Translations under genes and position numbers: made by a program | Assembly: GCA_965209155.1 (NCBI GenBank) | Contig: OZ242383.1 | Coordinates: 765,236-829,235 of the forward strand | Direction of reading: 5' to 3' | Length of the DNA: 64,000 nt | Origin: a bacterium | GTDB lineage: Bacteria > SAR324 > NAC60-12 | Part shown: piece by piece, positions 55,279 through 64,000 of the stretch | Layout: each line of letters begins with the position of its first letter | Numbering within the stretch: position 1 is the stretch's first letter | The notes under the pieces: generated by a model | What the model was told of the DNA's origin: nothing | Databases searched by the model: none | Seen by the model: only the letters and a program-made list of their open reading frames with translations

Positions 55279-56247
55279 CTAATTAAATCGAATTCGCGGA
55301 TCGAGCCAGGCATAGCTGAGGTCGACGAGGACGTTGACGACCAGGACAAAGCCGGCGATGACCAGGTTGACTCCGGAGACGATAGTATAGTCCCGGTCCA
55401 CCAGTGAGGAAACGACAAGCGCCCCGAGTCCCGGCAGGCTGAACAAATATTCGATCACCACCGCACCTCCTATTAAAACAGGTAGTTGTAACCCAATCAT
55501 GGTCACCACCGGAATCATTGCATTCTTCAAGACGTGCCGCAACATAATGACCCGCTCCCGGAGCCCCTTGGACCAGGCCGTCCGTACATAATCCTGTCGG
55601 AGTACCTCGAGCATCATGCTGCGGGTCAAGCGCATGGTGATTCCGGAGAGCCACATCCCCAGAACGAAGGCGGGGATGAGGAACATGCCTAAATTCCCGA
55701 TGGGGTCTTCAAAAAAAGGAACATAAAACAGACGTGGCCCCCATCCCCACCAAATGGAGGGGTAGGTCAAGATCAACGTACCCAGCCAGAAACTGGGCAC
55801 GCAGATGAAAAAGATGGCAATACTGCGCAAGATATAATCACCAGCCGTGTTGGGACGCATCGCCGAAAGAATCCCCACCGGTAAGGCAATGGCTAAAGAG
55901 ATGATAAGCGCCAGGAAACCCAATTCAAAGGATGCAGGCACCCGGTCGGAGATGATCCTGGCCACAGGAGCCCTGGTCCACATGGAGAGCCCCAGGTCCC
56001 CCTGCAATACCCCCCCGATCCATTGTCCATACTGGATATGCATGGGAAGATCCAACCCGAGAAAACGCTCGATTTCCGCAATGGCCTCTTCGTTGGAAAA
56101 ATTCCCGGCGCCCATCAATGCCATTTGTGAGATCATCTTTTCAATGACGTTGCCGGGGATGAGACGGACTGTGAGGAAGATAACGATGGTCACCAAAAGA
56201 AAGGTGGGAATGATCAGGAGGAATCGTCGCAGGATATAGGTTTGCAT
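55279..56247 (-). CDS. Peptide/nickel-type ABC transporter permease (DppB/OppB-like)
   Basis: MQTYILRRFLLIIPTFLLVTIVIF, DYVRTAWSKGL, LVDRDYTIV...WLDPRIRF. Confidence 0.85.
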   Translation of the reverse strand: MQTYILRRFLLIIPTFLLVTIVIFLTVRLIPGNVIEKMISQMALMGAGNFSNEEAIAEIERFLGLDLPMHIQYGQWIGGVLQGDLGLSMWTRAPVARIISDRVPASFELGFLALIISLAIALPVGILSAMRPNTAGDYILRSIAIFFICVPSFWLGTLILTYPSIWWGWGPRLFYVPFFEDPIGNLGMFLIPAFVLGMWLSGITMRLTRSMMLEVLRQDYVRTAWSKGLRERVIMLRHVLKNAMIPVVTMIGLQLPVLIGGAVVIEYLFSLPGLGALVVSSLVDRDYTIVSGVNLVIAGFVLVVNVLVDLSYAWLDPRIRFN

Positions 56248-56331
56248 GGAACCATTTTCATTAGCGCTGCTTGGAAAGCCTGTTTATATGGCCAAGAACG
56301 CGCAAAAACGAACAAGAACCAATAAATTTAT

Positions 56332-56373
56332 TCATTCCCACCCTCCTGCCCGAATACGGAGGAATGGGAATGA
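56332..56373. repeat. REP-like hairpin module in the SBP-permease intergenic region
   Basis: TCATTCCCACCCTCC-TGCCCGAATAC-GGAGGAATGGGAATGA. Same GTCATTCC.../...GGAATGA arm type as the other modules. Confidence 0.55.
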
Positions 56374-56410
56374 CTTAATTTCTTGCGTGATCCTGGCAAT
56401 TGCCAAATTG

Positions 56411-56448
56411 AAAAAGGGAATGGGATGTGAGCGAACGCCCCATCCCAC
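56411..56448 (-). terminator. Possible intrinsic terminator/attenuator after the SBP gene
   Basis: The minus strand reads TGGGATG-gggcgttcgctca-CATCCCA, then ttcccTTTTT. It begins 26 nt after the SBP stop. Confidence 0.4.
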
Positions 56449-56473
56449 TCCTGTGGTTCAGGAGAAGGAGATT

Positions 56474-58237
56474 CTATTCGAGAGGGCCGCGGCCACTCAT
56501 TTCCTTCTTCATTTGCTCGTCGATCCAGACCAACTTGAAGGTCTTCTGGTTATTGTTAACGACGATTCCATAGTAGTTCTTGACCCAGGGTTGCCAAGCC
56601 GTATACTGGGCTTCGTTCGGGAAATGCACATGACACATCATCTCGATGATATCATACTGAATGTCTATCCATAACGCGACATGCTCGTCTTTGGGCATCA
56701 GTTCCCCCATCAAGCGTCTGAGATTTTTCTCGATGTTTGGTCCTTGGGGGGTGTGGTCGAACGTCCCACAAATCGGGTGGCTCGAGGTAGTGGGCCAAAA
56801 GTGGTAGCCAAAGGTATCATCGTACCCCTTGACTCCGGTACCCGATTGGTTAAAAAAGGTCTCGTGCTTCCGGTCGGGGACTCGACCCCAAGGTGATTCC
56901 ACCACGTCGAATTTGACTCGTATGCCCACGTCATTGAAGAAGCTCTGGTAGAGTTCCGCCCATCCTTGAACACTGGCGTCCAGCATGGCTACGGTATCAA
57001 AGCCGTCCGGGTAACCGGCTTCCGCCAGCAGTTGCTTGGCTTTTTCCGGTTTGTATTCCCAAAGCTCAGCGAGTTCCGGTCGTTCCTTTTTCATAGTTTC
57101 ATAGTTGACGTAATACGGAGCCATACTGGGCAAGCTCAAGTAATAGAAGCCAGGAGGATCTCCGCCGCTATTTCCCTTTATGACGTTTTCAGCCACACCA
57201 AATTGATCGACGGCCAACATGGCGGCATACCGCACCCGTGGGTCATTCCAAGGCGAATTGTCCTGGGCGGCTTTTTCCAGGTTGATCGAAAACCACCGGT
57301 TCCCAGGTTCTCCTTCAGCAAACTGCAATTGGGGATTCGTCTTCTCGAGTTCGAGTTTATCTCTCCAATCCACGCCGATACTCCACGAGCCAAAATTGAC
57401 GTCCAGTTTGCCGGAACGCAAGGCGGCCAGCCGGGAGGCTTGATCTTTCATAACGATATAGCGCACCTCGTCGAGATAGGGTATCCGGTTGTGGGGGCGA
57501 ACGGGGTCCACCATCCAATAGTCGGTATTTTTTTTGAATCTCCCGGAAACTCCTTCCAGGTGCTCGACAGGCACAAAGGGTCCGGTGCCCAGGGCGTTCT
57601 TCCAGTCGTTCATGTCGATTCCCTGTTCCCAGACCTCGCGGGGTGGTGGGTGAATATTCAGGAATCGATTGAATGGGCTATTGGAGGTATCCCCCCGCGA
57701 CATTTTCAATTCAATCGTATAATCATCCTTGGCCGTCCACTCCCAAATATCACGCAAGGCATGAAGAGTGTTTGTGGGGGTTTGGTATGCTTGATCGAGG
57801 AGCGCGATGATATCATGGGCATTCAAAGTCCGCCCGTAGGCCGATGCGATGCTCTCGTGGTAGCTCGGAGCCGTGTCCTGATCCCAGAATTTGATTCCCG
57901 GACGGATATAGAACACCATGTGATCAGGAGCTGGCTGCTCGTATTGATACACCAAAAGTCCGATCCATTGATCGCGATAGGCGGTGATGTTTCCCACCAA
58001 AGGAGAAGTATTGTAACCCTGCTGCGCCTTGACGATATCAGGCTGAAACAGGGTATCATAAATGATAAGCGTATTGTGATGCGCACCCCAGTTATTCGAA
58101 TTGGGGTTCCATCCTTCACCCACCGGAAAGTGGACCCAATTGACCGAACCTCCATAAGAGGGGGTCAAGTCGGGTGAGGCGAACGTAAAGCTCGTCATCG
58201 TGATTGCCAAAACAAAAACTAACAGAAATTTCTTCAT
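56474..58237 (-). CDS. ABC transporter substrate-binding protein, family 5 (peptide/nickel type)
   Basis: Signal peptide MKKFLLVFVLAITMTSFTFA. 587-aa family 5 SBP. Upstream of two permease genes on the same strand. Confidence 0.85.
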   Translation of the reverse strand: MKKFLLVFVLAITMTSFTFASPDLTPSYGGSVNWVHFPVGEGWNPNSNNWGAHHNTLIIYDTLFQPDIVKAQQGYNTSPLVGNITAYRDQWIGLLVYQYEQPAPDHMVFYIRPGIKFWDQDTAPSYHESIASAYGRTLNAHDIIALLDQAYQTPTNTLHALRDIWEWTAKDDYTIELKMSRGDTSNSPFNRFLNIHPPPREVWEQGIDMNDWKNALGTGPFVPVEHLEGVSGRFKKNTDYWMVDPVRPHNRIPYLDEVRYIVMKDQASRLAALRSGKLDVNFGSWSIGVDWRDKLELEKTNPQLQFAEGEPGNRWFSINLEKAAQDNSPWNDPRVRYAAMLAVDQFGVAENVIKGNSGGDPPGFYYLSLPSMAPYYVNYETMKKERPELAELWEYKPEKAKQLLAEAGYPDGFDTVAMLDASVQGWAELYQSFFNDVGIRVKFDVVESPWGRVPDRKHETFFNQSGTGVKGYDDTFGYHFWPTTSSHPICGTFDHTPQGPNIEKNLRRLMGELMPKDEHVALWIDIQYDIIEMMCHVHFPNEAQYTAWQPWVKNYYGIVVNNNQKTFKLVWIDEQMKKEMSGRGPLE

Positions 58238-58286
58238 TTTATCCTCCGTCTATTGAAATTAATCAAAAAGATTCAATCTCCCATTG

Positions 58287-58335
58287 GTAACTATTCAGGT
58301 CTCAGAAAAACCCGTTTAGCTAAATATCATTAAAT
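58287..58335 (-). repeat. 49-nt conserved junction sequence, copy A
   Basis: GTAACTATTCAGGTCTCAGAAAAACCCGTTTAGCTAAATATCATTAAAT. 45 of 49 positions are identical to copy B (59966..60014). Confidence 0.85.
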
Positions 58336-58423
58336 AAAAGATTCCCGGAGAGGACCGATCGTTTTCAAGTCCTCCCACGTTATGATTCAATCGATCGGGA
58401 ACCCTCTCTTTCACTAAAACAAC
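58316..58423 (-). pseudogene. 3' remnant of a paralogous Toprim-like gene
   Basis: The minus-strand frame reads ...KERVPDRLNHNVGGLENDRSSPGIFYLMIFS*. The intact gene ends ...KKNYWDLNHNVFSNIRDFLNLMILN*. The two stop codons sit at the same position within the 49-mer. Confidence 0.6.
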
Positions 58424-58447
58424 TTAGTGAAGGCATGATTTTGACAA

Positions 58448-58476
58448 AATGTATATATTTTTTTGTATAATGTCAA
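58448..58476 (-). promoter_or_regulatory. Candidate sigma70 promoter for the SBP-permease operon
   Basis: Minus strand: TTGACA (58476-58471), 17-nt spacer, TACATT (58453-58448). It lies inside an imperfect palindrome that also reads TTGACA-N19-TATAAT on the plus strand. Confidence 0.4.
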
Positions 58477-58619
58477 CCCCAAATGAAAAAAAAAGCAGGA
58501 TTCGTAAAAAAATTAAAAATCTATCAATCAGGGAGATCCGCTTCGTTATGATCATGAGCCAAAAAGCGAATGTTCACTCCACATCAAAACCCTCGGAGAC
58601 GGTCTGGTTTATTTAGTAA

Positions 58620-59948
58620 CTATGTGTTCACCGAGACGGCCTCCTCGATGTCCTGGCGCGGTAGTCCCTCCTCATCGTCGCAGAGCATCTTGACCACGTC
58701 CTGCAGCTCTCTGTGGGTTAACGCTGCGTGGACGCTCGCTGCCTTGGCAAAGGCATCCGCCGATTCGACTTTGTTGTCTCTTGCCCGAAGGTCACGCACA
58801 AATGACGGCACGATGCACGTCAGCATCGCCCAGCGCTCCTCGCCAGAGACATTCAGCTCTGGAGGCGCCCTATGGTAGGTGCGCGAGTCGTAGAGGATGC
58901 CGGAACCAGCGGTAAACGAAGGCTGGACAACGTCCTGGAACGGACCTTCCCCCGCGACTGTCGGCACCTCGTTCATCTCTGTCGGCGGCGGGGTGTCGAA
59001 CTCATGGGAACCCAGAACGAACTGCGTGGCGCCCGTTTCCGGCGTGAAATCGGTCAGCGCGATGTTGAACTGCATCCCCAGCCTGTCCTTGCGTCCCTTC
59101 CAGTCTGGATACCGCGGTGAGATTGACGCATCAAGCTTCTCGAATTCCTCCGGGCCCAGCATGTAAGTGTGAGCTTCAGTCTCGCTCGTGAGCGGGTAGG
59201 GGTAGTCGGCGTGCCAACCACCGGGCATGACACGGGCATTCTCTCCAGTCTTCTCTGCGGGCCTTAGGATTGAGATCGCCGGTAATTGACAGTAATGGAT
59301 GGAGTCGACTCCGAGGTAGCTCTCGATCAGCCACAACGAGATCGGGTGCATCAGTGCTTGCGCAACCGCCGGCGTCCTACAAAAGAAACTCTCGCCCTTG
59401 TCCATTAGCGCTTGCGGGCGAATGAGGTTGTCGAAGGAACTGTACGGGCGGCTGTCCTGGGCTGCCTTCACCTTGGCCTCCTTCTCGGCTCCCTTCTCCC
59501 GCACGATGTTCACGTTCGCAACCAGGTTCGCCACCATCGCGGGGCTCATGACGTTCTCCACTACGGTCCACCCCTGCATCTCGAGCTCAGCGAGGTAAAC
59601 CGATGGCAGGCGGGCCGGCGCCTCACGCGCTGAAAACACGAGCTGATCCCCCAGATCAGCCAGCTTGGGCGCGTCGCCTGTGAGGCGGTATTTCTGCGGC
59701 ACGAGCAGGCTCGCGCCGGGACCGAACGCCGCGTCGATCTCCGCCGCCCGGTTCGAGTCCGGCAGCTCGCCGGAGGGCTCGACCATCACTGTGGCCCCCG
59801 TCACGGCGTTCCGTAAGCGTGAAGTGCTCTCCCACTCCCACATGCAACTGTCGTCGCATCGCGGACGCAGCCCAAAGCCGCTTTCTTCCGTCCCATCGCA
59901 CAAGTGTAGGCCCGTGGACTTGCTTACAAGCAGTATGTAGTCGTGCAT
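58620..59948 (-). CDS. Phytanoyl-CoA dioxygenase (PhyH)-family Fe(II)/2-oxoglutarate oxygenase with N-terminal extension
   Basis: PGGWHADYPY (HxD), GATQFVLGSHEF and SRTYHRAPP. 442 aa. Very GC-rich relative to its flanks. Confidence 0.7.
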   Translation of the reverse strand: MHDYILLVSKSTGLHLCDGTEESGFGLRPRCDDSCMWEWESTSRLRNAVTGATVMVEPSGELPDSNRAAEIDAAFGPGASLLVPQKYRLTGDAPKLADLGDQLVFSAREAPARLPSVYLAELEMQGWTVVENVMSPAMVANLVANVNIVREKGAEKEAKVKAAQDSRPYSSFDNLIRPQALMDKGESFFCRTPAVAQALMHPISLWLIESYLGVDSIHYCQLPAISILRPAEKTGENARVMPGGWHADYPYPLTSETEAHTYMLGPEEFEKLDASISPRYPDWKGRKDRLGMQFNIALTDFTPETGATQFVLGSHEFDTPPPTEMNEVPTVAGEGPFQDVVQPSFTAGSGILYDSRTYHRAPPELNVSGEERWAMLTCIVPSFVRDLRARDNKVESADAFAKAASVHAALTHRELQDVVKMLCDDEEGLPRQDIEEAVSVNT

Positions 59949-59965
59949 GAAGACCTCTCTCGCGC

Positions 59966-60014
59966 GTAACTATTCAGGTCTCTGAAAAACCCGTTCAGTT
60001 CAATATCATTAAAT
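59966..60014 (-). repeat. 49-nt conserved junction sequence, copy B
   Basis: GTAACTATTCAGGTCTCTGAAAAACCCGTTCAGTTCAATATCATTAAAT. Covers the last 6 sense codons plus the stop of the Toprim-like gene and the 29 nt downstream of it. Confidence 0.85.
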
Positions 60015-60615
60015 TCAGAAAATCGCGAATATTACTGAAAACGTTGTGGTTCAAATCCCAGTAATTTTTCTTTGCTGCCACACCCACGGAAACATGGGGC
60101 TCAGGCTTTGTTGTCAGATAAGCAAACGCGCGGGCCTTCTCCTGTCTCTTGACAGACATATCAAGCAAATCTTCTATGCACTTGAAAAAGTCATCGATAC
60201 AGCGATCCTCCGGGGTACCCGCAAAGCTTTCGCAAAGAAGCGTTTCGAGCATACCCTGGCGATTGTTGCCGGGCAATATCAGTACCGTCACCTTCGGGAG
60301 GGTAGCAGTGGGTTCTTCGGGGTGGGGTGGAACAGGCAGTTTGGCGTTCGTTAATGAAGTCTGAACACTTTGAAACGCCCCTTCTGCGGATCTTTCCGCA
60401 TCACGTACGATGCCAATACTCTCAACAATCTCATGAAAATGCGGCATGTTCACAAGTGCAAGGAGGAAACTACGCAATTCGTCGACACCGCCGAAGTCCT
60501 GGATCTGGATATTCGGGAACGATAGATGCTCAATGAGCGCTTCAAAGAAATTGAGTTGGTCCTTGCCCTCCACGAGCAGTTGAATTTTCGACTCGATTTG
60601 TTTTGCTATTGCCAT
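59995..60615 (-). CDS. Small Toprim/OLD-nuclease-like protein (DUF3226/DUF4435-like, tentative)
   Basis: N-terminal strand plus acidic motif IQLLVEGKDQ. Central IGIVRDAE acidic motif. VTVLILPGNN. 206 aa. Starts 2 nt after the upstream ATPase gene. Confidence 0.55.
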   Translation of the reverse strand: MAIAKQIESKIQLLVEGKDQLNFFEALIEHLSFPNIQIQDFGGVDELRSFLLALVNMPHFHEIVESIGIVRDAERSAEGAFQSVQTSLTNAKLPVPPHPEEPTATLPKVTVLILPGNNRQGMLETLLCESFAGTPEDRCIDDFFKCIEDLLDMSVKRQEKARAFAYLTTKPEPHVSVGVAAKKNYWDLNHNVFSNIRDFLNLMILN

Positions 60616-60617
60616 AC

Positions 60618-61730
60618 CTAACGAACCTCGAGACTGTGTCCGATCGCGGCATCGATTGCATCCGGTTCATAGGTAACGCAGCGATTCTTCTTGTCAGCGA
60701 TTTCAAGCCTGTGCAGGCGAAAATTGTCGGGACTCAAGGACGTATGGGCTGCGTTCACGCATTCAAGACTGTGCGTGGTTGCGAATATTTGAGTGTGGAA
60801 TTGCCTGGCCGCTTCGGCAATGACCCTCCAGAAATCGGGTAGTACGGAGTGATGAATGCCATTTTCTATTTCGTCCACCAGCACGACGCCACCTGGAACG
60901 GAAGCTATGGCCAGGACGAGCCGGGCAATTTGAATCATCCCTTCCCCCATGACTGCCATCGGCACCAGTTCGGGCCACCCGATGTCTCCCCAGATCATGG
61001 GGATCCCACTGGAAGAATTATCCTCGATGCTCAACAGTCTCGGCTCGACGACCTGTAGTGCTTTCAAGAGCAAATCTCCCCGTTTCTGTCGTCTCAATCT
61101 ACCGAGTCTCATGGCATCATCGGGAGTACTCCTGGTACGAGACGAAAGAATAACCGCCTGAAAGGGAGCATTTATAACAGGCTGATCGACCTTGACTTCC
61201 TGTCCTTCCATATAAATACGACTTTTAACTGGTTTTTTTGAACGACAGCTATAAAGAAATATTAGTGAACCATCAAAAAGATTAGTAACCGAAATGCCGG
61301 TAGTACGATCTAGAGAAATTCCGGTGGTGGCTTGGCGTTCCGATTCGATTTTTAAAGACAATAGACCTTGAGCCGTGTGATTTCCCTCGATCTCAATGGA
61401 CTGCCCCATGTCCAGATTAGAGAAGAGTTGCTTCCACAAGGGCTCGCCTGGCGGAACACTGATCGTATCCAGGCCGCGAATAATATTGACGTTCACTGCC
61501 ATTTGCGCGTTTCCGGATCCCGTCAACAGAAAAACTGCCTCGAGCAAACTGGTTTTGCCAACGTTGTTTTTGCCGGCAATGAGGTTGATATCACTCAATT
61601 GGTCGATTTTGAGTTCGTTGAAGCCTCGAAAATTTCGTACCTGTAAACTTTCGAACATCGCTTTCACGCCTTGTTTAAATCTGGTTGACCTCGTTTTTTT
61701 CATGTTCTTTGAAATTGTACGTTTCGACAT
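60618..61730 (-). CDS. ABC/SMC-type AAA ATPase (AAA_21/AAA_15-like)
   Basis: LQVRNFRGFNELKI...LIAGKNNVGKTSLLEA (Walker A), MGEGM (signature-like), VVLVDEIENGIH (Walker B/D-loop), ATTHS (H-loop). The true start may be the internal MFESL at 61658. Confidence 0.8.
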   Translation of the reverse strand: MSKRTISKNMKKTRSTRFKQGVKAMFESLQVRNFRGFNELKIDQLSDINLIAGKNNVGKTSLLEAVFLLTGSGNAQMAVNVNIIRGLDTISVPPGEPLWKQLFSNLDMGQSIEIEGNHTAQGLLSLKIESERQATTGISLDRTTGISVTNLFDGSLIFLYSCRSKKPVKSRIYMEGQEVKVDQPVINAPFQAVILSSRTRSTPDDAMRLGRLRRQKRGDLLLKALQVVEPRLLSIEDNSSSGIPMIWGDIGWPELVPMAVMGEGMIQIARLVLAIASVPGGVVLVDEIENGIHHSVLPDFWRVIAEAARQFHTQIFATTHSLECVNAAHTSLSPDNFRLHRLEIADKKNRCVTYEPDAIDAAIGHSLEVR

Positions 61731-62015
61731 CGCTTACATGCCTCATCCCATCTTTTTCATTTTCCTGGTTTGGTGTTGATCCAGGACCCGTTTTGGAAGG
61801 ATTCAGTTTCAGGTTTTACAGTTGATTCAAACTCATATAACGTTCTCATGGCAATTTCACTTATATCATTGAACGGCTGCCCAATAAATAGAAAAGTCCA
61901 CAAAACGGACAAGGTCCACTCCCCTTAACGCGACGAGTCATTGGGGCAATTGCCCTTATTTACTTGAAATTCTATTTCGTGGTCAAGCTTGCAAGTTTGG
62001 AAAAAATCTTTTAAG

Positions 62016-62258
62016 TAACCTGAGTTCGAGATAAGCTTTTAACAAATTCAATATGTTAAGGAATCTTCATATCTCAGAGAAACCTTGTCATTCCTGGCTT
62101 GACCAGGAATCCAGGGGTAGGCAGATAGACTGAAATCTGGATCCCCGCTCCCCGCTCCCTGCTTTCGCAGGGACAAGTTTAGCAGGGACAAGTTTAGCGA
62201 GGATGACCTATACACCAGAATATTCCAATTATTGAAGATTAACGTCGAACTCGGGTTA
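62016..62258 (+). mobile_element. MITE family 1, copy 2
   Basis: TAACCTGAGTTCGAGATAAG... ...ACGTCGAACTCGGGTTA. Carries a TCATTCCTGGCTTGACCAGGAATCCAGG module and the long palindromic module in the opposite position and orientation from copy 1. Confidence 0.8.
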
Positions 62259-62295
62259 GGCAGGCTACTGATTTTACTTTTATCCCTGAGTTTCA

Positions 62296-62443
62296 GGGTT
62301 CATCAATTGAGGAAATGGATCAAGTAGTCAGAGAATCTCCAAGGTCGACTCGAAACCCTCCAGGTTCGAATCTTTGCTTGAATTTCAAAACATCCAGGCC
62401 TGACCTCGTTAGAAACAATTTCTATATTGATATTGATCAGATC
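62296..62443 (+). repeat. Repeat R3, copy b
   Basis: Aligns with 34589..34722. Both copies can be read as ...LETLQ(T/V)(Q/R)IFA* in one frame. Confidence 0.65.
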
Positions 62444-62566
62444 ACTCAATTAACCCGACCTGTGAAGTTCAATGAGTTTTTTTGAATACCGATCGGTTAT
62501 CTGCTTGTTTAAGCTGCCATTAGATTCGTCATCGCGATTTAAACCAAACACTTTTTTAGGAAAATT

Positions 62567-62610
62567 GTAACTATTCAGGTATCTTCAGAGAACCCATCGA
62601 TTTAAACACA
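62567..62610 (-). repeat. Junction sequence, copy C (diverged)
   Basis: GTAACTATTCAGGT is identical to copies A and B. The rest (ATCTTCAGAGAACCCATCGATTTAAAC) is only partly alignable. Confidence 0.55.
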
Positions 62611-62825
62611 GATTTTGCGTAGCATAGAGTCCGGAAAAGACTTCATCCTCTCGAAAGTTCAAAAATATATTGATTCCCTTTCATCAATTCCCCACCTCGA
62701 AGCTCTTCAAGAAGCCAGTCAACACTTTGAAAAAGAACGAGAGCCATGGAAGCAAGAGCGCTTAGCACTCTGATTTACCTCCCTGAGATATAGTCGAAAG
62801 TTGGGGATGGACTAAATTTGAAGGT

Positions 62826-62885
62826 GGCGTATCCTATTGATGGGAATTTAAAATAAATAGAATTACATCAAAGAAAGGATACGCC
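62826..62885 (+). promoter_or_regulatory. Long hairpin covering the transposase ribosome-binding site
   Basis: GGCGTATCCTATTGATG ... CATCAAAGAAAGGATACGCC. The outer 10 bp are perfect, plus 6 inner bp. The right arm ends 1 nt before the ATG at 62887 and contains the AAGGA/AGGA Shine-Dalgarno. Confidence 0.6.
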
Positions 62886-62886
62886 A

Positions 62887-64000
62887 ATGAGCAACTATAA
62901 CGTGATTGATCTGGAGAAGCCAGAGCAAATTATTGAAGATCATTTGAGTGAACTTTTGAGAGTGAAAGCCAGGAAGATACTTTCTGAAGCGTTGGAATTG
63001 GAGATGGAAATATTCATGAAGGAATATCAGTCCTATCGACTCTCGGATGGACGTCAGCGAGTGGTTCGTCATGGTTATCATCAAGATCGGGAGATTCAGA
63101 CGGGAATTGGTTCTATATCCGTGAAAGTTCCGCGGAGTAAAGATCGTCAAAGCACCTCATCAGAGGAAAGGATTCGATTTTCTTCCAAGTTGATCCCCCC
63201 TTATCTGAGGAAAAGTAAAAGTATTGAAGCCCTGATTCCCTGGCTGTATCTGAAAGGGATTTCCACTGGTGGCTTTCAGGAGGCGCTCGCAGCGATTTTA
63301 GGTAAAAGAGCGGCGGGCTTGTCTTCAGCGACAGTGAGCCGTCTTAAATCAAGCTGGTATGAGGATTGGAAAGCCTGGAAACAACGGGATCTCTCCCAGA
63401 GTCATTATGTTTATCTCTGGGTCGATGGCGTGTATTGCAATGTGAGAATGGATAAAGATAAACAATGCCTCTTGGTGATTGTGGGGGCAACAGAAAATGG
63501 AGATAAAGAGCTCGTTGCCTTGGAAGATGGCTACCGGGAAAGTGAGCAATCCTGGAGGGAACTGCTGATGGATCTGAAGCACCGGGGATTGACTGAGGCC
63601 CCTAAAATCGCTGTGGGAGACGGAGCGATGGGATTTTGGAAAGCTTTGAAAAAAGTCTATCCTCAGAGCAAAGAGCAGCGTTGTTGGATGCACAAAACGG
63701 GAAACATTCTCAACTATTTACCAAAAAGGGAGCATCATAAAGCCAAGGATCGTCTCCATCAAATTTGGATGGCCAGCAGCAAAGAGGAAGCTTTCAAAGC
63801 CTTAAAGCATTTTGTTGACATGTATGAGGCGAAATATCCTAAAGCCACTCACTGCTTGATTAAAGATCAGGAGACCTTGATGGCCTTCTATGATTTCCCG
63901 GCAGAGCATTGGAGGCATTTGAGAACGAGCAATCCCATTGAATCCACCTTCGCTACTGTCAAACTGAGAACTGCCAAAGTCAGAGGTTGTTTCTCAAGAA
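62887..64000 (+). mobile_element. IS256-family (mutator-type) transposase gene, 3' end outside window
   Basis: Open frame from the ATG at 62887 to the window end; not in the ORF track because there is no stop. YLWVDGVY, AVGDGAMGFWKAL, CWMHKTGN, LRTSNPIESTFATVKLRT. Confidence 0.9.

Follow-up and report, generated by a model that had tools for sequence, protein, structure and literature searches.

Several described mobile elements resemble what we report here. In ISEcp1 and ISAba1, one end of the insertion sequence (IS) lies close upstream of an outward-reading gene, and a promoter located in this end faces outward as well. The Correia elements of Neisseria represent another form, as they are short non-autonomous derivatives, numerous and mostly intergenic, that can supply promoters or transcript structure. 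Here, we analyzed a repeat found in a 64,000-nt stretch of contig OZ242383.1 (hereafter the window; the genome is a single 4.26-Mb contig with 48% GC), and we concluded that its 49-nt unit is very probably the extreme outer end of the right arm in an IS of the IS66 family, ISBst12 group, and in the derivatives of this IS. Within the same group, the active ISDge4 of Deinococcus geothermalis has a single open reading frame (ORF) and a direct repeat of 8 bp, and its terminal repeats are GTAACTGCTCAGCA and GTGACTACTCAGCA (PMC12898284).

A sequence-only reading of this DNA had noticed three copies of the repeat in the window, and all three were confirmed:

58287..58335, plus strand: copy A, right-arm positions 1-49, with position 1 at 58287; GTTTAGCTAAAT subfamily
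59966..60014, plus strand: copy B, a solo right-arm terminus, identical at 48 of 49 positions to genome copy 2197387 of a miniature inverted-repeat transposable element (MITE)
62567..62785, plus strand: left arm of a MITE with its left inverted repeat, 92-94% identical to 4 MITE left arms; copy C is its tip, 62567-62610

Copies A and B are identical at 45 of 49 positions (92%), while copy C matches both of them exactly over its first 14 nt and at 17 of its first 18. The 14-mer GTAACTATTCAGGT occurs 3 times in the window versus 0.18 expected from shuffled sequences, and 3 or more occurrences were reached in 0 of 100 shuffles.

The repeat had been read as a sign of cassette turnover at this locus. 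Searching the genome returned 147 matches to the 14-mer (at most 2 mismatches, both strands) and more than 50 near-full 49-mers, with the consensus GTAACTATTCAGGTCTCTGAAAAACCCGTTCAGTTAAATATCATTAAAA. Because the sequence before position 1 differs from copy to copy, position 1 is the true terminus of the element. Two sequence types follow the shared 14-mer, a right arm (copies A and B) and a left arm (copy C), and right and left arms occur as inverted pairs either ~555 bp or 2,066-2,072 bp apart. By BLAST, we counted 66 right arms and 46 left arms in the genome. The left and right repeats share 14 identical nt and are alike at ~28 of the first 40 positions, and this is why copy C had been taken for a more degraded copy, while it is actually the left inverted repeat, from the opposite end of an element of this family.

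The autonomous element is 2,066-2,072 bp long, and its terminal repeats begin with GTAACTATTCAGGT at both ends. Perfect 8-bp target duplications were found around 4 full-length units of 2,066-2,069 bp (for example TTCTGGAG at genome positions 1829675-1831740 and GTCTGGGA at 2320330-2322398), around one 1,410-bp unit, which is a MITE carrying a nested insertion, and around two 199-bp derivatives. The sole long ORF of the 2,069-bp unit bounded by such a duplication encodes a 515-aa transposase, with no accessory ORFs (tnpA/tnpB), containing the domains DDE_Tnp_IS66 (PF03050, 4.2e-48, profile positions 3-283 of 284), zf-IS66 and DUF6444. Four copies of this transposase are intact and identical, 2 are near-full-length (96% and 95%), and many others are decayed. 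Its identity to any transposase outside the genus is at most ~50%. Among 31 related genomes, the element is present in 2, the source genome and a sister species of the same genus, while the remaining 29, drawn from the family and order, have no arm-like sequence.

An IS66 DDE domain, a single ORF, terminal repeats starting with GTAA and an 8-bp duplication characterize the ISBst12 group, and the element is a further representative of this group, with MITE and solo-end debris. It shares with ISBst12 and ISDge4 the single DDE_Tnp_IS66 ORF without tnpA/tnpB, the GTAACTnnTCAG-type repeats and the 8-bp duplications. The motif GTAACTNNTCAG brackets homologous transposases at ~50 loci of cyanobacteria, Chloroflexota, archaea and others. 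Two features set the element apart from its relatives in other phyla, which are 1.47-1.67 kb long: the present element is ~500 bp longer and its right end is organized differently. In these relatives, the stop of the transposase ORF falls within the right repeat (CCTGAGTAGTTAC in Nodosilinea, for instance), whereas here the ORF ends at a degenerate repeat, CCTCCTTGTTAC-TGA, which is followed by 473 nt of non-coding sequence up to the working terminus. We also considered an IS256-family element as the parent and rejected it, as this element is nested in a MITE with its own 9-bp duplication, while the duplication-bounded units encode the IS66-type transposase.

Besides the full-length copies, the genome holds many internally deleted copies, MITEs of ~555 bp and solo arms. 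The MITEs (~9 units of 447-564 bp) are made of a right arm of ~345 nt and a left arm of ~218 nt; they keep both ends of the parent IS, lack the transposase, and are small and numerous, in agreement with the definition of a MITE. Around the ~555-bp units, we detected no target duplications, the flanks mismatching at 3-7 of 8 positions, which fits old copies or flanks shuffled by recombination. Like the Correia elements and other bacterial MITEs or solo IS ends, these derivatives retain both ends of the parent, are numerous and are mostly intergenic; they differ from Correia-type MITEs in that most copies are without target duplications and in that one arm type is strongly tied to one downstream gene class, the ATP-binding cassette (ABC) importers. 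Tandem solo right termini, 42-44 nt apart, were also observed ahead of a full arm at genome positions 1284988/1285031, 3941723/3941765/3941809 and 829770/829813, the last pair being located just past the window end (~64535/64578). These tandem termini, together with the break of copy B described below, suggest that breaks or insertions recur near arm position 43-48.

The MITE to which copy C belongs is split into 2 halves, 62567-62785 and, past the window, 64174-64534, by the following element:

62786..64000, plus strand: IS256-family IS with a Mutator-type transposase of 418 aa, nested in the MITE and running to ~64164

The inverted repeats of this element are imperfect, and a 9-bp duplication, ACCTCCCTG, flanks it at 62777-62785 and 64165-64173. 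As its transposase is present in 10 identical genome copies, the IS256-family element is very recently active.

Copy A is the tip of a longer stretch of the right arm, which faces a transporter operon:

58287..58583 (297 nt), plus strand: truncated right arm, positions 1-295, matching full IS and MITE copies at 85-90% by BLAST
from 58237 downwards, minus strand: SBP_bac_5 (solute-binding protein, SBP) gene and two permeases, an ABC-transporter operon

For comparison, full right arms measure ~345 nt in MITEs and ~473 nt in full ISs, and the 58287-58583 stretch is covered by ~70 other genome copies. The terminus of arm A lies 49 nt upstream of the SBP_bac_5 start codon (58237), the gene reads away from the arm, and the 49-mer of copy A is probably part of an mRNA leader. 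Copy A carries the GTTTAGCTAAAT markers T31 and C34, common to genome copies 1153798, 1161168 and 1669837, and its best genome match is copy 1153798 (92% over 297 nt), not copy B, which has the majority form GTTCAGTT at the subfamily marker positions 31/34. The difference in subfamily between A and B speaks against a local duplication and against a cointegrate copying one element. An origin of A and B as attL and attR was rejected on the same ground, as well as considering that more than 60 copies exist elsewhere.

Copy B is a much shorter remnant and overlaps the end of a predicted defence pair:

59995..60615, minus strand: DUF3226 gene (PDC-M38B-like; "Toprim-like"), whose last codons and TGA stop come from copy B
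60618..61730, minus strand: AbiLi/PDC-M38A-like ABC-type ATPase, the partner of DUF3226; AbiLi 4.7e-54, full length

The ATPase matches AbiLi and PDC-M38A, and its partner matches PDC-M38B and Pfam DUF3226, as expected for a pair resembling AbiL and the PADLOC candidate system PDC-M38. The pair, whose defence role is a predicted one, differs from AbiL in that the partner has no AbiLii match and its last codons are transposon-derived. The IS-derived part of copy B covers positions 1 to ~42-48, with the arm match confined to positions 1-49, and BLAST against the genome revealed no arm sequence or any repeat inward of it. Results of the comparison with the sister species showed 85.8% nt homology to the orthologue from 61742 to 60010, where the homology ends. 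The residues YWDLNHNVFSNIRDF in the gene of copy B are native DUF3226 sequence according to 16 homologues, all of which keep Y185, L188, H190, F193 and F199, with W186, D187 and R197 nearly invariant; WDLNHNVFSNIRDF is native as well, and WDLNHNV is conserved in homologues from other organisms. Considering that close homologues end FLNLIAAT..., FLNKIITT... or FLQMIAA..., the native gene probably ran through TTTCTGAATTTAAT. The contribution of the IS to the gene is at most ATG ATA TTG AAC TGA, which corresponds to the last 4-5 codons and the stop.

The break between IS and gene can be placed only within the hexamer ATTAAA (60008-60013). As this 6-nt microhomology is common to the IS arm and to the native DUF3226 3' end, the junction points to a microhomology-mediated deletion. 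C-terminal lengths vary in the DUF3226 family (198-213 aa), and for this reason the protein is probably still functional. No promoter is left in copy B, which probably has no effect beyond providing the stop codon. The opposite scenario, in which the defence pair was inserted into an arm, was rejected, there being no arm sequence beyond 61742. Between the 2 species, the ATPase-DUF3226 pair forms a conserved block of 1.73 kb (60010-61742 in the window, 373-2106 in the sister stretch) that reaches from a point 12 nt ahead of the ATPase ATG to the IS junction; beyond it, neither flank is related. The sister-species DUF3226 gene enters a different multi-copy IS fragment at its 3' end, with a tail ~12 aa beyond the closest homologue. 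Upstream of the ATPase gene, the whole region consists of MITE debris; a different MITE of ~245 bp, with ~276 BLAST matches in the genome, occupies 62016-62258, and a further repeat with ~10 copies is located at 62286-62405.

Between arm A and copy B, we found 2 additional features:

58584..58626, no strand assigned: resident 43-nt segment, from the end of arm A to the PhyH stop region, containing GTAACTAT
58620..59948, minus strand: PhyH-family dioxygenase gene (Pfam PhyH 6.7e-9)

The PhyH segment (~58627-59965) has a GC content of 58-68%, well above that of the genome, and is single copy in the genome and absent from 30 related genomes; it is foreign DNA, horizontally acquired. Its right edge coincides to the nucleotide with the terminus of copy B (59965/59966), 17 nt upstream of the PhyH ATG by our measure and not 18 as first given. 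On the other side, the PhyH stop codon is supplied by the 43-nt segment, inside ACATAGTTAC, which matches the IS terminal octamer. This segment, AACCCTCGGAGACNGTCTGGTTTA..TAGTAACTATGTG, is repeated at genome positions 3668324 and 1772707, at loci without PhyH, where it stands ~60 nt upstream of a gene start with a complementary ribosome-binding site (RBS) region. All genes of the locus (ATPase, DUF3226, PhyH and the SBP operon) are on the minus strand.

These data suggest the following history. The A and B elements would have arrived separately, with their right ends pointing at minus-strand genes, the SBP gene for A and the PhyH gene for B. Foreign DNA may have been acquired downstream of the defence pair, and an IS or MITE would then have landed immediately upstream of the PhyH gene, its right end toward it. 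A deletion from arm position ~45 into the DUF3226 3' end via ATTAAA would have removed the rest of the element and anything beyond, and the DUF3226 gene would consequently finish in transposon sequence. Independently, the arm upstream of the SBP gene would have been cut off at position 295, while copy C is the left repeat of the MITE into which the IS256-family element inserted afterwards.

Alternatively, A and B could be direct IS copies left by a decayed cointegrate or by a one-ended event, in which an IS end attacked a foreign replicon bearing PhyH. This explanation is unlikely, yet it keeps some ground: the foreign GC-rich segment ends exactly at the B terminus, A and B have the direct orientation expected of cointegrate copies, and the PhyH stop lies in the sequence matching the IS terminal octamer. 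However, the markers at positions 31 and 34 differ, and A and B are each closer to copies elsewhere. Moreover, the octamer is part of the 43-nt resident segment found also at the 2 loci without PhyH, and both outer junctions expected from a cointegrate are deleted, so that no target duplication is left to compare. We favor, for A and B, the separate arrival of elements of this ISBst12-group IS.

The right arm as a whole shows a strong preference for one kind of neighbor. We scored as neighbor any ORF of at least 80 aa reading away from the arm and starting within 400 nt; 52 of the 66 right arms have one. Right arms lie just upstream of ABC-importer genes in 31 of 66 cases versus 0 of 46 for left arms (Fisher p = 1e-7). 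The source genome thus has at least 31 importer genes associated with an arm, belonging to three unrelated binding-protein families: 26 are SBP_bac_5, 2 SBP_bac_1 and 1 Peripla_BP_4, in addition to 1 ABC permease and 1 SBP_bac_5 fragment. The start codons are typically found 22-34 nt from the arm terminus. No ABC-linked arm retains less than 187 nt, and in 30 of 31 the retained length is at least 195 nt, which includes the -35 site described below; of the 35 non-ABC arms, 8 do not reach 125 nt. These data would fit selection for an arm that bears a promoter.

We also tested if arms and genes were duplicated together. The median identity is 0.84 for the arms and 0.39 for the adjacent proteins, and some 98%-identical arms precede proteins only 28-29% identical. 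A co-duplication of arm and SBP gene was rejected, as arm identity showed no correlation with protein identity (rho 0.12, Mantel p 0.23). A comparison of coordinates placed at least 21 of the 25 arm termini of the sister species upstream of SBP_bac_5 genes, with a spacing of 22-40 nt in 8 of 20 loci. When SBP genes are orthologous between the 2 species (at least 90% identical), usually just one of the two orthologues is preceded by the arm, and their homology starts at the RBS or a few codons inside the coding sequence. The SBP_bac_5 genes are massively expanded, with ~110 loci in the source genome and 149 tblastn matches in the sister species. Among the latter, ~25 SBP_bac_5 sequences have exactly one in-frame TAG in long open frames, versus 7 with TGA and 5 with TAA. 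Another short repeat is present between some arm termini and SBP starts; it reads ...KKFLARFVGL..AG.VSAAKIRFA... and generates spurious N-terminal extensions in ORF calls, and it was seen at two sister-species loci and upstream of genome copies 1153798 and 1587342.

The inner part of the arm contains 2 predicted features that read outward, toward the terminus:

58448..58476, minus strand: sigma-70-like promoter, TTGACA-N17-TACATT, directed toward the SBP operon; 10 of 12 consensus positions
58345..58377, minus strand: conserved hairpin GGGAGGAC...GTCCTCTCC, 7 nt, then a U-run, just before the 49-mer in the transcript

Toward the terminus, the arm is ordered as TTGACA, a repeat spacer, a -10-like hexamer, 2 small hairpins, the GGGAGGAC/GTCCTCTCC hairpin with its U-run, and the 49-mer. 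The -35 hexamer TTGACA is kept with at most 1 mismatch in 55 of 55 arms. The spacer consists of variable simple repeats, either (TAG)2-4 or A-runs with (TA)n, making a segment of 22-37 nt among 50 arms; in IS-type arms, (TAG)2, (TAG)3 and (TAG)4 give 18, 21 and 24 nt, respectively, between a perfect TTGACA and TATAAT. The GGGAGGAC/GTCCTCTCC hairpin has a folding energy of ~-16 kcal/mol in most copies, and the 144-nt leader folds with z = -3.97, while the 49-mer itself folds as a G-U-dependent hairpin (z = -3.4 for A and -2.2 for B). RNAalifold on 55 arms gave a poor consensus (-13.6, with gappy columns), and no Rfam covariance model matched positions 56000-64000 at E <= 1.

This arrangement recalls ISEcp1 and ISAba1, where the IS end is a short distance upstream of a gene reading away from it and provides an outward promoter, which is predicted here. 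It departs from them as the promoter-like site is located at a depth of ~160-190 nt in a long arm, with a hairpin and U-run after it, and as it would serve transporter operons of the chromosome instead of resistance genes. From its sequence, an arm that keeps the promoter, as arm A does, probably drives or modulates the downstream gene. Tentatively, it is possible that the ISBst12-type element of this lineage gained a promoter/leader arm of ~470 nt, and that this arm was recruited as a portable 5' control module for a greatly expanded set of ABC importers, with repeat-length spacers that could tune or switch expression.

The reverse order of events, in which the arm was first the native regulatory leader of ABC-importer operons and was only secondarily picked up by the IS as a transposon end, appears improbable to us, more so than the cointegrate. 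A native leader would be in agreement with the 473 nt that the element has in excess over its relatives and with the degenerate inner repeat at the transposase stop, as well as with the bias of right over left arms for importer genes, the structured leader and the minimum length always kept by ABC-linked arms. On the contrary, the outer 14 nt are an IS66-family terminal repeat, common to the left end and to ISDge4, and nothing arm-like was present in the other genomes of the family and order. In addition, orthologous SBP genes of the 2 species differ in the presence of the arm, and arm similarity does not track gene similarity. These observations favor the reading of the arm as the end of an ISBst12-group element first.

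The explanation originally offered for A, B and C was that they are diverged 3' ends of paralogous Toprim-like (DUF3226) genes with a junction, left by exchange of defence cassettes at this locus, and it is now hardly credible. It started from real observations, as A and B are direct repeats flanking a foreign GC-rich gene, and as the open frame preceding copy A, which reads ...DRLNHNVGGLENDRSSPGIFYLMIFS*, shares LNHNV and terminal residues with the DUF3226 ORF, which terminates ...NLMILN* with its stop codon inside copy B. However, the genome has 1 DUF3226 locus versus ~66 right arms, which refutes the paralogue origin and also the expectation that the 49-mer always follows ATPase/Toprim pairs. 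The sequence inward of copy A, 58336-58583, is arm sequence (positions 50-295) found in the ~70 copies, and we found no decayed second DUF3226 gene upstream of copy A and no significant homology of this region to DUF3226 coding sequence. The parallel claimed for the 35-codon frame comes down to the 49-mer itself plus a chance match of 14 nt, which is the best local match of A and B inward of the 49-mer and whose score was equaled in 169 of 2000 shuffles (not significant). LNHNV is located 19 codons before the stop in A and 14 codons before it in B, and the consensus of 55 arms at the LNHNV stretch of A is DRWNHIV. Stops at the same offset in A and B had been read as a sign of homology, while they coincide because both are within the shared 49-mer. 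Furthermore, A and B belong to different arm subfamilies, and C is a MITE left repeat. Finally, the content downstream of the defence pair is different in the sister species, as cassette turnover would have it, but this difference is due to another IS. The idea that the 49-mer is functional as a recombination or regulatory sequence holds in a generic sense, as an end that the transposase would have to recognise and cut, and not as a cassette-exchange junction.

Integron attC sites, or attL/attR of an integrative element, between gene cassettes can be practically dismissed: repeats of similar size do separate successive same-strand genes (C, defence pair, B, PhyH, A), but there is no integron integrase (best TIGR02249 score 122 bits versus a cut-off of 265), no RYYYAAC/GTTRRRY core pair was seen by eye, and most genome copies are upstream of genes and in inverted pairs around a transposase with 8-bp duplications.

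Some points weigh against our interpretation of the 49-mer as an ISBst12-group end in an arm that acts on its neighbors. Both the activity of the 49-mer as a transposase-recognised end and that of the arm promoter are deduced from sequence. A consensus -10 hexamer at a workable spacing is present in only 21 of 55 arms, and the hairpin with its U-run, located between promoter and gene, could terminate transcription instead of allowing read-out. No target duplications were found at the SBP-adjacent elements, and the full-length copies that have them are not beside SBP genes; simple transposition does not account for the arms at SBP genes, and candidate routes are an adjacent deletion by an IS end or a recombination of 5' modules. 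Lastly, the proposed order of events from A through PhyH to B rests on one genome, from which such an order cannot be reconstructed.

In conclusion, the value of the finding as it was first posed is corrective, as apparent gene remnants and a cassette junction are transposon ends, and a short open frame beside a repeat can mimic a decayed paralogue. For the annotation of the locus, this implies a defence pair with its 3' end clipped by a mobile element, adjoining a horizontally acquired PhyH gene. The association of the arm with ABC importers is the part worth following. In two species, one arm of a single IS family precedes a large share of the ABC-uptake operons. If the arm promoter is active, it would clearly exemplify how an entire functional gene class can be rewired by a mobile element.

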